Part shown: piece by piece, positions 6,205-53,150 of the stretch | Position numbering within the stretch: position 1 is the first letter of the stretch | Layout of the letters: each line of letters opens with the position of its first letter | Assembly (NCBI GenBank): GCA_047173955.1 | Contig: JBCQUO010000002.1 | Location: 38-64,037 of the forward strand | Direction of reading: 5' to 3' | DNA: 64,000 nucleotides | Origin: Rikenellaceae bacterium | Lineage (GTDB): Bacteria; Bacteroidota; Bacteroidia; Bacteroidales; Rikenellaceae | Program-made: the position numbers and the translations under genes | The notes under the pieces: generated by a model | The model's input: only the letters and a program-made list of their open reading frames with translations | Databases searched by the model: none | Told to the model about the DNA's origin: nothing

Positions 6205-6840
6205 GAGGTCTGCCCTCACGCCGGGCGGGCGCACAGCAAGCTGTGATTTGTTTTCCTTGCGGTTGGGTGTGTTTGCTGTGAGCGCGGAAGTTCACCAAAG
6301 GTGAACGTATAATATGAAAATAGTGGATGCTGTCCTCGAAAGCGAGCTTTCGGTTCAGCATCCACTATTTTCATATTACCCCCTCTCGGGGGTCTCCGCG
6401 CTCGCCACACCCCCACCCAACCGAGTGGCAGCATGCGAAGGTTGCATCTTTCGGCTGATGCATCTCTCACTTATCTAAGGCTTGCTCTGTCTTACTCAGT
6501 TTTATTCAGCCCTTCTCAGTTCATTGTCATTATCCTCCTTCAGTCTCCGAACTACAATAAAAGAACTGAGATGAAATGATAAATGGAAGAAAACCTTCGT
6601 ATATAACTACCTCGCTTTGGGTGATGGGGCCGCGAGGGGGTTCCCCCATAGGGAGAATAATATAAAATGAGTGTCATGGACCGAAAGTTTACTTTCAAGG
6701 TCCATGACACTCATTTTATATTAAATTTCACGCTTTAGCGCGAAAACCTCTCGCGGCCGCAAACGGCATAAAAGCGCAAGGATAACAAATCACAGCTTGC
6801 TGTGCGCCCGCCGGCGTGAGGCAGTCCAGCCTCTGACCTT
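6205..6840. repeat. Tail-to-tail pair of composite A-D elements between convergent genes
   Basis: Cores at 6231-6249 (+) and 6787-6805 (-); palindromes 6311-6377 and 6659-6722. Confidence 0.92.
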
Positions 6841-6876
6841 AGGCCAAACGACCTTAGGCCGATATAACAGCAACCT

Positions 6877-8229
6877 TTACTCCAAAGAGAATACTCCTGT
6901 ATAGCTCTGAGGGGTTACGCTACGAAGTTCAGCTTTGACCTCGTCGGTGACATCCAACTCATTGATAAAGACTGCGATTGACTCCGCAGTGATATGAGAG
7001 TTTGTACGCGTTAATGCTTTGAGAGCTTCGTATGGAGATGGGTATCCAGTGCGGCGAAGCACCGTTTGTATTCCCTCGGCCACCACTGCCCAGTTAGCTT
7101 CGAGGTCGGCATCTATAGCTGCTTGGTTCAAGATGATTTTACCCAGACCCTTAAGCAGCGAGCGCATACCTATTAGGGCGTGCGAGATCGGCACACCGAC
7201 GTTGCGAAGCACTGTAGAGTCCGTAAGGTCGCGCTGTAGGCGTGACACGGGGAGCTTAGATGCTAGGTGCTCGTAGATTGAGTTTGCTATACCGAAGTTA
7301 CCCTCCGCGTTCTCGAAATCAATAGGGTTAACCTTGTGAGGCATAGCGCTCGACCCCACCTCGCCAGCTTTGATACGTTGCTTGAAGTACTCCATCGAGA
7401 TGTAGCTCCACATATCTCTAGAGAGGTCAATCATGATTGTGTCGATACGTTTGAGGTTATCGAAGAGGGCAGCCATCATGTCGTAGTGCTCGATTTGAGT
7501 TGTGTATTGCGATCTATCGAGCCCGAGGGTGTTGTTTACAAATGAGTTTGCCACATCGACCCAGTTGATGTGTGGGTATGCGATATTGTGGGCGTTGAAG
7601 TTACCCGTAGCTCCACCAAACTTAGCGGCATAGGGGAGTGACTTCAACATTGTGAGTTGCTTGCTAAGGCGCTCTACATATACCTGAATCTCCTTACCTA
7701 GGCGTGTGGGCGACGCTGGTTGTCCATGTGTACGAGCCAACATAGATACACCGCTCCACTCCGCTACCATCGCGCTGAGTTTTTCGATAAGCTCCTCGAG
7801 GGTAGGGATATATACATCTGCCACCGCCTCTTTGAGCGACAAGGGGATAGATGTGTTGTTGACATCTTGTGACGTGAGTCCGAAGTGGACAAACTCCTTG
7901 TACTCTTGAAGTCCCAAAAGATCCATCTTCTCTTTGATGATATACTCGATAGCCTTCACGTCGTGGTTGGTCACCGACTCGATCTCCTTGACACGCTCAG
8001 CGTCGGTGAGCGAGAAATCGGTATATAGCTTGCGCAGGTCGGCAAATGCACCTTTGTCGATTGTCGATAGCTCGGGGAGGGGTAGTTCGCACAGAGTGAT
8101 GAAATACTCCACCTCGACGCGGATACGATAGCGGATAAGTGCAGCCTCGGAGAAATAATCGCCCAATTTTTCGGTTACATTGCGGTAACGACCATCAATC
8201 GGCGAGATAGCTGTGAGTTTGTTTAGCAT
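6877..8229 (-). CDS. purB: Adenylosuccinate lyase
   Basis: 450 aa; TNHDVKA, HFGLTSQD, RTHGQPA and GSSAMPHKVNP fumarate-lyase signature. Confidence 0.98.
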   Translation of the reverse strand: MLNKLTAISPIDGRYRNVTEKLGDYFSEAALIRYRIRVEVEYFITLCELPLPELSTIDKGAFADLRKLYTDFSLTDAERVKEIESVTNHDVKAIEYIIKEKMDLLGLQEYKEFVHFGLTSQDVNNTSIPLSLKEAVADVYIPTLEELIEKLSAMVAEWSGVSMLARTHGQPASPTRLGKEIQVYVERLSKQLTMLKSLPYAAKFGGATGNFNAHNIAYPHINWVDVANSFVNNTLGLDRSQYTTQIEHYDMMAALFDNLKRIDTIMIDLSRDMWSYISMEYFKQRIKAGEVGSSAMPHKVNPIDFENAEGNFGIANSIYEHLASKLPVSRLQRDLTDSTVLRNVGVPISHALIGMRSLLKGLGKIILNQAAIDADLEANWAVVAEGIQTVLRRTGYPSPYEALKALTRTNSHITAESIAVFINELDVTDEVKAELRSVTPQSYTGVFSLE

Positions 8230-8328
8230 ATGCGTAAATATTTAGTACGTTTGATTTTGACTCCAAAAGTACGACATTTAATCGAATAAGACAATTTTTT
8301 TCTTTAAATTAGTATTGTGTAAAATTTG

Positions 8329-8960
8329 AGACTGCCTCACGCCGGCGGGCGCACAGCAAGCTGTGATTTGTCCTCCTTGCGTTTTGTGTGTTTAGGCCGC
8401 GAGGTGTTTTCGCGCTCAAGCGAGAAATTTAAAATATTTAATGGCAGACCCAGATCTCGAAAGTAAACTTTCGGCTCTGTGCCTACCATTAAACATTTAT
8501 TCCCCCATAAGGGGGAATCCCCCTCGCGGCCCCAACCCCAAATCGAGGTGGTGTCACTCACAACTCATCACTCCTAACTCTTAACTCCCACGCGTCATTG
8601 CGGCCTCCGAGCCGCAATCCCTAGCGATACATTGTGTGACCGAGGCAGAGATTGCGGCTCGGAGGCCGCAATGACGCGTGGGAGAGTTAGGAGTTAGGAG
8701 TTAAGAGTTAGGAGTTAGGAGTTAGGAGTTAGGAGTTAGGAGTTAGGAGTTAGGAGTTAGGAGTTAGGAGTTAAGAGTTAAGAGTTAGGAGGAGTTAAGT
8801 CTCTCATTCACCATTTATCATTCATCATTTATCATTCACCATTTATCATTCACCATTCATCATTCACCATTCATCATTCACCATTTACCATTCACCATTC
8901 ACCATTCATCATTAACCATTAACCATTAAAACCATTTATCATTCACCATTAATCATTATC
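8329..8960. repeat. Composite A-D element, B palindrome and two heptamer arrays
   Basis: Core 8351-8369, B 8593-8676, GGAGTTA array 8681-8800, TCACCAT-type array 8803-8960. Confidence 0.92.
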
Positions 8961-51415: not shown

Positions 51416-51532
51416 TCACAAACAGTTGATTAGGACTATATCATAACACAAAAGAGAGTACCCTCTATCTTAGCAGATCGGGGGGCTCTCCAATTAAAAA
51501 CCTTTTTTCTAACTCAAACAAAAAAAATAATT

Positions 51533-52738
51533 ATGTTAACAGCACTATTTGATCTACTAGATTTCTTGCGCTCAAACTTCTCAATGCTCTTTGCTCTTGC
51601 TTTTTATGCAATCCTTGCAGTGGCTTTGTCGAAGTCAATCAAGAAGCATTATAAGGTATATTACTGGGTATTTGGTCTGCTCTCGGCAGGTTTCGTGATC
51701 CCTGTTATCTGCCGCCTTTGTGGTATTGATTTCACCCTAAACTTGGGCATGATCCCATTCTTTGGCCCATGTATCAGTGAGCTATCGAGCGCAGGAAACT
51801 TCGTTCACCCTGTCTTGATTATCATCATGTATATGGGAGCTTTCAGCCCCAAGAACCAATACATCGGTCGTTTGATGTCTATCCGCAAGGAGCTCTCTAT
51901 CATCGTTGGTTTCCCCGTTATCGCTCACGCTATGAAGCGCCTTTTCGGAACTTTCGTTGGCGGATGGAACTTCTTCTTCGACCACGAGACAGCTATCCAA
52001 TCTCCACGCGTAACAAGCGTTTTGGGTTCGGGAATCTCTAGCTTCGTATATGTTTTGGGTCTTGTGATGTTCGTTTTGTTCCTCGTTTTGTGGATCACCT
52101 CATTCGACTCTGTACACCGCAAGTTGGGTACTCAAAAGTGGAAGGCGGTACAAAAGTGGTCTTATGGCCTCTATGCGATGTTGTTTATCCACGCTATGGG
52201 TCTTAACCTAGGTGGCTATATCAGCGATAAGGCTCGCGCAGAGCAGATGGCTGCACGCGCAGCGGCTCAAACCGAGATGGTCGCAGAGGCTCGTCCAGAG
52301 CGTCAGCCACGCACAGAGGGTGAGTCACAAGAGGGTCAACGCCCAGAGCGTCCAGCTCGCGCAGAGGGAGAGTCACAAGAGGGTCAACGTCCAGAGCGTC
52401 AACCACGCACGGAGGGAGAGTCACAAGAGGGACAACGCCCAGAGCGTCCAGCTCGTGCAGAGGGTGAGTCACAAGAGGCTTCACAAGGAGGACACGGACC
52501 TCAACAACAACAAGGTCCACAAGCATCGCAAGGTGGCCAGCAACAAGGCCAACCACAAGCACAGGCTTCACAAGGTGGTCATGGACATGGCCGTCCATCG
52601 TTCAAGTTTGCTGAGATCGAGATCGACCGCACAAACAAGCGTTTGGTTAATATGTTGATCCTTGTGTTGATCTATGGTTCATACCTATATTTCCGTTTGC
52701 GCAAATCACGCCAAGATAAAGCAAAACGCAAACCTTAA
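51533..52738 (+). CDS. Ferric-reductase-like (MsrQ-type) transmembrane protein with a long low-complexity insertion
   Basis: IRKELSII...IAHA and WITSF...KLG..KWKAVQKWSY...FIHA membrane motifs; about 130-aa Q/E/G/P/R-rich insert before the last helix. Confidence 0.75.
   Translation: MLTALFDLLDFLRSNFSMLFALAFYAILAVALSKSIKKHYKVYYWVFGLLSAGFVIPVICRLCGIDFTLNLGMIPFFGPCISELSSAGNFVHPVLIIIMYMGAFSPKNQYIGRLMSIRKELSIIVGFPVIAHAMKRLFGTFVGGWNFFFDHETAIQSPRVTSVLGSGISSFVYVLGLVMFVLFLVLWITSFDSVHRKLGTQKWKAVQKWSYGLYAMLFIHAMGLNLGGYISDKARAEQMAARAAAQTEMVAEARPERQPRTEGESQEGQRPERPARAEGESQEGQRPERQPRTEGESQEGQRPERPARAEGESQEASQGGHGPQQQQGPQASQGGQQQGQPQAQASQGGHGHGRPSFKFAEIEIDRTNKRLVNMLILVLIYGSYLYFRLRKSRQDKAKRKP
52295..52486 (+). 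repeat. Coding tandem repeat: 4 x 48 bp in an ABAB pattern
   Basis: PERQPRTEGESQEGQR and PERPARAEGESQEGQR alternate; copies differ mainly at third codon positions. Confidence 0.95.
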
Positions 52739-52744
52739 TTCGCG

Positions 52745-53150
52745 CCTCTTCAGGGAGCAAAACCTTGGTTTTGCGACTAAGCCCCATCCCTTGGGAGGGG
52801 GTTTGGGGGTGGGGTAAAATATAAAAATATATAAAAAAGGCAAAAAAGTTCAAACCTTAATTCGCATTAATCATTATCGGCGTTAATCATTAATCATTAT
52901 TTTTCGCCCTCGCTTTTGAGGGGTGGGGCCGCGACTTTGGGTCCCCCAACGGGGGAATAATATGAAATGAGTACCACAGACCGAAAGCTTGCTTTCAAGG
53001 TCTGTGGTACTCATTTCATATTAAACGTTCACTAAAGGTGAACTTAAAGTCGCGGCCCCAAACAGCCACAACACAAAATCGCAAGGAGGACAAATCACAG
53101 CTTGCTGTGCGGCCGCCCGCTGTTAGGGCAGTCCAGCCTCTAAAACAGCT
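52745..53150. repeat. Module F, heptamer segment and composite A-D element (-)
   Basis: F 52750-52822, palindrome 52959-53022, core 53092-53110. Confidence 0.92.

Follow-up and report, generated by a model that had tools for sequence, protein, structure and literature searches.

A 64,000-nucleotide stretch of a Rikenellaceae genome (contig JBCQUO010000002.1, positions 38 to 64,037; hereafter the window) contains a family of palindromes whose arms differ from copy to copy, and yet each arm matches its own partner. What keeps the two arms of each hairpin complementary while both of them change? The original prediction, made from the sequence alone, proposed either selection on the stem or an intramolecular mechanism that copies one arm from the other. 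We confirmed that the covarying palindromes are real and strong, and we found evidence for both options. We also found something that had been overlooked: each palindrome is a single module within a larger element, and this element is docked at the ends of genes. The element itself is our main new result. It is a genus-restricted module, predicted to fold as a four-way junction, that we found at gene ends in 10 of the 150 congeneric species searched.

The seven arm pairs that were originally cited are all in place, with the same length as before or slightly longer. Three are 100% complementary: 6310-6332/6356-6378 (23 nt; previously 6311-6332/6356-6377), 6658-6682/6699-6723 (25 nt; previously 6659-6682/6699-6722), and 52958-52982/52999-53023 (previously 52959/52999). 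Two are 96% complementary: 11507-11531/11548-11572 (previously 11508/11548) and 24401-24423/24440-24462 (previously 24401/24440). The pair at 37356-37380/37397-37421 (previously 37357/37397) is 92% complementary, and the pair that was described as continuous into the centre (46661/46701) extends over 33 nt at 46660-46692/46695-46727 and is 97% complementary. The window contains two more copies, at 8429-8501 and 11113-11178. The conserved centre, GAAAG-N4-CTTTC, occurs 8 times in the window, as compared to 0.13 occurrences expected, and 119 times in the genome as a whole. This genome (G000) is a metagenome-assembled bin from fish-gut samples (2.03 Mb in 108 contigs, 92% complete).

To quantify the covariation across the genome, we relied on 61 gapless copies from the largest of three length classes of the palindrome (subfamily A with 75 copies, B with 24, and C with 20). 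We confined the statistics to these because MAFFT alignments of all three subfamilies mis-register B and C; the structure itself was read from the sequence. Among the 61 copies, 97.2% of stem cells are paired, versus 86.4% after shuffling and at most 43% if the partners are slid. Changes on both sides are found at 20 of the 30 stem pairs (186 such cells, with 41 further pair types). The covariation score is 0.312, versus 0.112 after shuffling (none of 500 shuffles reached the observed value) and at most 0.056 for slid partners. The mismatch between the two arms of a copy is 4.7%, while the arm divergence between copies is 20-21%. In the genomic copies, then, arm substitutions are overwhelmingly compensated, and the many-position covariation that was originally claimed from the window is borne out.

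The covariation would be trivial if a few ancestral perfect palindromes had been duplicated into clonal subfamilies. There are three length classes, as this would predict, and some of the mismatches were inherited by many copies. However, even within subfamily A, 60 copies have 53 distinct arm pairs between them, and the 41 further pair types all arise there. Also, all four gametes are seen for 59 of 120 pairs of variable columns, and 18 alleles of the middle segment combine with 24 alleles of the inner segment. The diversity of arm pairs and the four-gamete incompatibility refute the idea of a few clonal subfamilies, so we consider a trivial origin of the covariation to be extremely improbable.

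An oriented element at gene ends

When the copies in the window are aligned along with their flanking sequences, each palindrome (which we will call P3) turns out to be the middle of an oriented, modular repeat of about 240-290 bp. From 5' to 3', the element comprises tandem units, a head, a linker, the 5' strand of an outer stem (P1), the hairpins P2, P3, and P4, the 3' strand of P1, and a tail. The element begins with one to nine short tandem units that end with AGAGGCT(G). These units are 7-14 nt long (for instance, GGTCAGAGGCCTT or TTTTGGC repeats), lie between the stop codon and the head, and are present in most elements, but their copy number differs from locus to locus (examples in the window are at 37215-37250 and 46529-46560). 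The head is nearly invariant (GGACTGCC..CGCCGGCGGGCGCACAGCAAGCTGTGATTTG). P1 is formed by GGCCGCGAG.. and ..CTCGCGGCC, or by GCGCGCGG and CCGCGCGC, and it encloses the other three hairpins. P2 (GTTCACC-N4-GGTGAAC, or TTTCGCGC-TAAA-GCGTGAAA) and P4 (CCCCC-N4-GGGGG) are short.

P3 is 66-69 nt long. Its stem is 25 bp, with two bulged nucleotides on the 5' side, and it is capped by an apical stem of 5 bp (GAAAG/CTTTC) and a loop of 4 nt (TAAA, CAAG, or CGAG). Its ends read TAATAT/ATATTA. The outer arms are A-rich on the 5' side (TAATATAAAA) and T-rich on the 3' side (TTTTATATTA), with a GC-richer inner stem between them; this is so in all of the species that we examined. P3 hairpins of subfamilies B and C also have conserved internal mismatches. 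Hardly any variation is seen in the head, in the outer TAATAT of P3, or at the apex, while few positions anywhere in the element are as diverse as the variable columns of the P3 arms. The element is predicted to fold as a four-way junction of P1 through P4. Parsing P1, P2, and P4 from minimum-free-energy folds over all copies was too noisy to tabulate.

To find the element across the genome, we searched it (nhmmer) with a profile built from the window copies, which gave 319 matches on both strands. These correspond to 190 loci, of which 94 are full length and 121 contain the oriented palindromic module. The nearest upstream gene is in the same orientation as the element in 109 of the 110 cases with a called upstream gene. 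In these 109 cases, the stop codon of that gene is 0-110 nt before the start of the profile (median about 27), and the first repeat unit often directly abuts it. Two further cases are at around 350 nt. The elements occupy 47% of convergent intergenic regions (82/173), 11% of tandem intergenic regions of over 150 nt (32/298), and just 1.6% of divergent intergenic regions (3/193). The genes upstream are ordinary core genes, dispersed on both strands.

Is the element found in other genomes? With the whole element as the query, BLAST found only a fragment of the head, in one of 24 congeners, and other hairpins come after the head in that genome. With a covariance model of P3, we found hairpins with the same apex but unrelated arms in 10 of 150 congeneric species (at least 21 hairpins in G165, 8 in G017, and 4 in G014). 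In other genera of the order, only 2 of 150 genomes had a match to this model, and each was single and weak. Scanning a wider set of genome contigs for an 18-mer from the head gave only single chance matches in unrelated phyla.

In four of the congeners (G165, G017, G067, and G042), the hairpin again lies after a stop codon and a related head, between P2 and P4 and inside P1. The bulge is again on the 5' side and the loop has the same orientation relative to the upstream gene, although the primary sequences of the element differ among these species. For eight representatives from these four genomes and G000, the same four-way junction is predicted (z = -9.2 to -16.2). The arms covary in G165 as well, with 11% mismatch within copies and 23% between copies. 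These comparisons show that the element is a genus-level family that keeps its junction shape, its apex, and the orientation of its loop and bulge while the stem sequences turn over. Because the architecture and the apex are the same while the stem sequences are unrelated, selection appears to act on the structure.

The positions of the element are partly shared between species. Of 15 orthologous gene ends, 6 had the element in both G000 and a congener, versus a background of about 12% of genes, and the proteins of the species in question are only 38-85% identical. Yet a copy resembles the others in its own genome more closely than those in other genomes. Together, the partly shared positions and the likeness within genomes indicate the concerted evolution of an old family.

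How the arms may be kept complementary

We first consider what P3 might do. Its outer arms are A-rich and T-rich, it lies after stop codons, and it is enriched between convergent genes, so we infer that it acts as a hairpin where genes end; the simplest form of this would be a bidirectional intrinsic terminator or a hairpin that protects the 3' end. The location is as expected for an intrinsic terminator. The layout of an A-tract, a GC-richer stem, and a T-tract is found in G000 and in the congeners, but both tracts take part in the pairing, and the stem measures about 30 bp. A simple scan for terminators did not call P3, and its counts were no higher than for shuffled sequences.

The orientation of the loop and the bulge is canonical in 106 of 119 copies, and the unusual copies include inversions at several scales. 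The loop alone is inverted at C32:18505 (contig:position in G000), the core of P3 (the apical stem and the bulge) is inverted at C47:23154, and the whole P2-P3-P4 interior is inverted between the arms of P1 at C7:9260 and C75:20618. The bulge has moved to the opposite side at C53:9269. In the window, the copy at 46660-46727 has its bulge filled in and its loop inverted (TTTA), which gives an uninterrupted palindrome of 33 bp. Some copies have self-complementary loops (CTAG or TTAA). Indels are mirrored in both arms at C59:1332, at C67:6757, at C57:886 along with C90:27411, and between subfamilies A and B; the one-sided indels are confined to runs of A. Finally, many of the double changes are swaps by transversion, with almost no intermediates: at one pair, UA is found 28 times and AU 25 times, and at the next pair, GC is found 32 times and UA 20 times. 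The nested inversions, the mirrored indels, and these swaps all point to processes at the level of DNA.

In published work, template switching between inverted repeats is recognised by homogenised arms and an inverted spacer (PMC8604942), and it has been proposed to create and maintain stems (PMC8794818). The P3 copies have both of the features that mark a quasipalindrome hotspot, namely spacer inversion and arm homogenisation, and the homogenisation includes indels. We also considered if the variable segments of the arms might have a guide-like role, but they match their own flanks no better than they match the flanks of other copies, so we rejected this.

The explanation that we prefer for the covariation combines a gene-end hairpin, copying between its arms at the DNA level, exchange of its layers, and selection; as a whole, we give it slightly better than an even chance. 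A mutation in one arm would quickly be erased, or copied onto the other arm, through template switching of the DNA from one inverted arm to the other (quasipalindrome correction). The nested layers are probably shuffled by exchange between copies: since the hairpin is contiguous, an exchanged tract that spans its centre would bring in new variants without breaking the pairing, which would explain how the nested layers mix and match. Selection for a stable and correctly oriented hairpin would then remove the remaining copies that are mismatched or flipped. The conservation of shape, apex, and orientation across species shows that selection does act, as otherwise the flipped forms would drift towards equal frequencies. 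Overall, the evidence favours selection and arm copying acting together, rather than one or the other.

Several observations weigh against this explanation. Flips are rare (about 5%), so either template switching is infrequent or selection removes the flipped copies. Template switching is read from its end products and not from single-step events; DNA runs containing this genome are nearly clonal, with 2 differences in 20 kb. A terminator at P3 leaves the conserved downstream parts (P4 and the 3' strand of P1) unexplained, and a 30-bp stem is much longer than that of typical intrinsic terminators. Nor do the signals expected of an RNA hairpin appear on the sense strand. In subfamily A, the sense strand has 28 G.T cells and 40 A.C cells, so there is no enrichment of G-U, and the number of distinct kinds of mismatch is similar (15 G.T versus 14 A.C in subfamily A, or 23 versus 26 in all three subfamilies together). 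When RNA parameters are used, 88 of 119 oriented modules fold more stably as the antisense strand, and across the 119 modules there are 346 G-U pairs in the antisense strand versus 194 in the sense strand. We do not rely on this asymmetry, which rests on a few inherited A.C mismatches in the sense strand and on loop energies. The only RNA data are contigs from a fish-gut metatranscriptome, which break at the repeats and are uninformative about transcription, RNA ends, or strand. (The metagenomic DNA contigs break at the repeats as well; the depth was flat over the 20 kb that we compared.) Also, as the assembly is a bin that is 92% complete, an enzyme that mobilises the element could be missing from it.

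Could selection on RNA suffice? The element might be a new four-way-junction RNA in 3' untranslated regions, whose stems are kept by selection on compensatory point mutations, without any copying of DNA. This would fit the conservation of the junction across species with different sequences, the strict orientation relative to the upstream gene, and the conserved apex and side of the bulge, and compensatory switches are documented in the evolution of terminator stems (PMC5381666). But in the terminators of B. cereus, G-U is the commonest intermediate (PMC5381666), unlike in the sense strand of P3, and the element either lacks RNA-specific signals or has ones that favour the antisense strand. 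Point mutations that arise independently would not easily produce mirrored indels, filled bulges, or nested inversions, and if every change had to cross a fitness valley, then the arm columns would not be expected to be among the most diverse of the element. There is also no match in Rfam: only tRNAs pass the gathering threshold in the window, and at permissive thresholds the element matches only generic models of miRNA-precursor hairpins, far below their cut-offs. We think that an explanation at the RNA level alone is unlikely.

Alternatively, the element could be non-autonomous and mobile, similar to MITEs (miniature transposable elements with inverted repeats), repetitive extragenic palindromes (REPs), or attC sites, with a folded single strand or a cruciform that is recognised by a transposase or recombinase acting in trans. 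If only the copies with an intact hairpin propagate, this would keep the arms complementary. The high copy number, the lineage-specific sequence, the greater likeness within genomes than between them, and the existence of deletion derivatives and of mosaics with other repeats would all make sense for a mobile element. The docking sites are polar, as for attC sites or for elements that target terminators; the folded strand seems to be the bottom strand; and the bulge resembles extrahelical bases. On the other hand, we did not find a Y1 transposase, a reverse transcriptase, or an IS110-type transposase in the 92%-complete assembly (PF01797, the family of Y1/RAYT transposases, has no match in G000 but does match control genomes). 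The head is not an inverted repeat of the tail, attC core motifs and cassette arrays are absent, and the genes that host the element are ordinary core genes found on either strand. Positions that are partly shared between species with such diverged proteins fit old residents better than recent insertions. We consider mobility to be quite unlikely as the reason that the arms remain paired, and a little less probable than selection on RNA alone.

A broader proposal, which is tentative and falls clearly short of an even chance, is that the element is an undescribed and genus-confined four-way-junction module at stop codons. The apex (GAAAG-UAAA-CUUUC) and the 2-nt bulge would be the recognition site for a protein, while the long and freely evolving stem would be kept perfect by programmed or facilitated copying between the arms. 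Such a module might be a new signal for termination or 3'-end processing, or a new site-specific mobile element that targets gene ends, and it may act via the antisense (bottom) strand.

Whichever of these holds, over 100 paralogous and covarying hairpins with inversions at three levels are a natural experiment on stem upkeep, by selection versus by template switching, and how stems are maintained is a long-standing question in the evolution of RNA and DNA structures. A large share of transcription units have the junction module at their ends, as is apparent from its occupancy of convergent intergenic regions. The module keeps its shape as its sequence changes, which points to a gene-end signal that is unstudied, or to an element that targets gene ends, in gut Bacteroidota, and termination and 3'-end biology are poorly known in the Bacteroidota. 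Such a high-copy repeat at gene ends also accounts for the break-up of the assembly into 108 contigs.

Copies in the window and neighbouring repeats

The first element in the window is a full one (head, P1, P2, P3, P4, and tail) at 6200-6427 on the plus strand, after the gene at 5290-6174. It matches positions 7-238 of the profile, and its P3 (6310-6378) belongs to subfamily B, which has an internal loop; the arms are perfectly complementary, and the four-way fold has z = -13.8. Convergent with it is a full element on the minus strand (6607-6842, P3 at 6658-6723), which follows the minus-strand gene at 6877-8229. The full element at 8314-8551 (plus strand) is from subfamily C, and its P3 (8432-8498) is imperfect, with conserved A.C mismatches in the sense strand. 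Another full element, at 10996-11230 on the plus strand, follows the gene at 10223-10975, and its P3 (11113-11178) has the apex GAAAA-TAAA-TTTTC. On the minus strand, a full element at 11453-11694 (P3 at 11507-11572) follows the minus-strand gene at 11718-14006.

Further along, an element with a shortened head is at 24329-24511 on the plus strand (P3 at 24399-24464), after the gene at 22919-24313. The gene at 36585-37214 is followed by a full element on the plus strand (37234-37472) whose P3 is at 37356-37421 and whose P1-P4 module, at 37321-37451, has a fold with z = -11.3. Convergent with this element is a truncated one (37485-37616, minus strand), which has the head, P1, and P2 and ends inside P3. 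The element with the 33-bp palindrome is full (46536-46776, plus strand; P3 at 46660-46727) and follows the gene at 45689-46528. The last full element (52908-53147, minus strand; P3 at 52958-53023) follows the minus-strand gene at 53490-54761, and its fold has z = -16.2.

Three partial elements lie on the minus strand. The one at 24882-24991 consists of the head and the beginning of P1, after which come heptamer arrays; the one at 42384-42515 runs from the head through P1 and P2 into the first bases of a P3 of subfamily C; and the one at 45053-45153 has just the head and the linker. A deletion derivative on the plus strand (57866-57983) consists of the head, P1, and P2, without P3. Like the derivatives at C24:619-704 and C12:12588-12649, it has kept whole nested layers. 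The layouts seen among derivatives are P1 with P2 only, P1 with a single C5 hairpin, and a different hairpin (TTGGACTTAGAAC...) straight after the head. A minimal form of the family, at C89:16846-16917, lies between two convergent genes; its two heads are joined tail to tail and together make a single perfect 24-bp hairpin, with none of P1-P4.

The element has other repeats as its neighbours. Heptamer arrays (of the AATGGTG and AACTCCT/AACTCTT types, including inverted pairs) lie directly against the elements' 3' tails; in the window, such arrays are at 11241-11309, 24990-25150, 27782-27944, and 46785-46832. Across the genome, the array sequences AATGGTGAATGGTG and GAGTTAGGAGTTAG occur 112 and 183 times. 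A second high-copy repeat is a nested palindrome that begins with CGTCATTGCGG (206 occurrences in the genome) and has inner hairpins of the form ATTGCGGC-N6-GCCGCAAT; it is found in the window at 201-284, 8585-8684, 11314-11397, and 22740-22814. It starts with CGTC, as does the CGTC-tagged superfamily of REPs (PMC3733652), yet no Y1 transposase was found in the genome. In the congener G067, a similar repeat adjoins the element (L142:1640-1720). Finally, the region at 58403-60191 has four tRNA genes upstream of an open reading frame of 395 amino acids (58849-60036) and a fifth just downstream of it, as identified by matches to Rfam's tRNA model, and a truncated element sits immediately upstream of the first tRNA.

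Comparison with known systems

The element resembles the REPs, the bacterial interspersed mosaic elements built from them (BIMEs), and the enterobacterial repetitive intergenic consensus (ERIC) sequences of Proteobacteria in being high-copy, extragenic, and palindromic, often at the 3' ends of genes and in mosaics with other repeats. Roles in termination or mRNA stabilisation have been proposed for those repeats. REPs are 20-40 bp, have a GTAG or CGTC head, and are associated with RAYT transposases (PMC3733652, PMC2817692). In contrast, the element is a four-way junction of 240-290 bp whose 66-69-bp hairpin begins with TAATAT, and no Y1 transposase was found in its genome. P3 is not a palindrome of 20-40 bp with a GTAG or CGTC end. 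Also, the orientation of the element with respect to the stop codon upstream hardly ever varies, and its architecture is conserved between species while its sequence is not. As for MITEs, the head (GAGGCTGGACTGCC...) and the tail (...CCCAAAGCGAGGTGG) are not reverse complements, so there are no terminal inverted repeats: the inverted repeats are all internal and nested, and the ends of the element are blurred by the tandem units and the heptamer arrays.

Like the element, intrinsic (bidirectional) terminators come after stop codons and are concentrated between convergent genes. They have a GC-richer stem with an A-tract before it and a T-tract behind it, a layout that P3 recalls, although its own tracts are paired. 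Their stem sequences are free to change while the pairing is kept, and the compensatory evolution of these stems is documented (PMC5381666). P3 differs in having a stem of about 30 bp with a conserved apex and bulge, in lying between two hairpins inside an outer stem, and in that its copies are paralogous repeats. With quasipalindromes and other hotspots of template switching, P3 shares arm homogenisation, spacer inversion, and multi-base compensated changes (PMC8604942, PMC8794818, PMC7202029). Those hotspots were described at single loci or in rRNA or coding genes, whereas here there are over 100 paralogous hairpins with three nested levels of inverted repeats.

The attC sites of integrons are another likeness: they lie directly 3' of an open reading frame in a fixed orientation, and they are imperfect palindromes with asymmetric unpaired bases whose structure, not sequence, is conserved. 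The element lacks the RYYYAAC/GTTRRRY cores and does not form cassette arrays, and it is found at dispersed core genes on both strands (we did not search for an integrase gene). In the literature that we searched, there is no description of such an element in Bacteroidota, and the nearest relative in form is BrickBuilt, a composite MITE of Porphyromonas gingivalis with 19 copies and a 23-nt minisatellite, at 49-591 nt from genes (PMC4596501). BrickBuilt is likewise an intergenic composite repeat of a Bacteroidota, with short tandem units and with leader and tail parts (PMC4596501), but a long covarying hairpin and docking at stop codons are not described for it. We place the element with the intergenic palindromic repeats and the terminator-like hairpins, and there is a fair chance that it is something more distinct.

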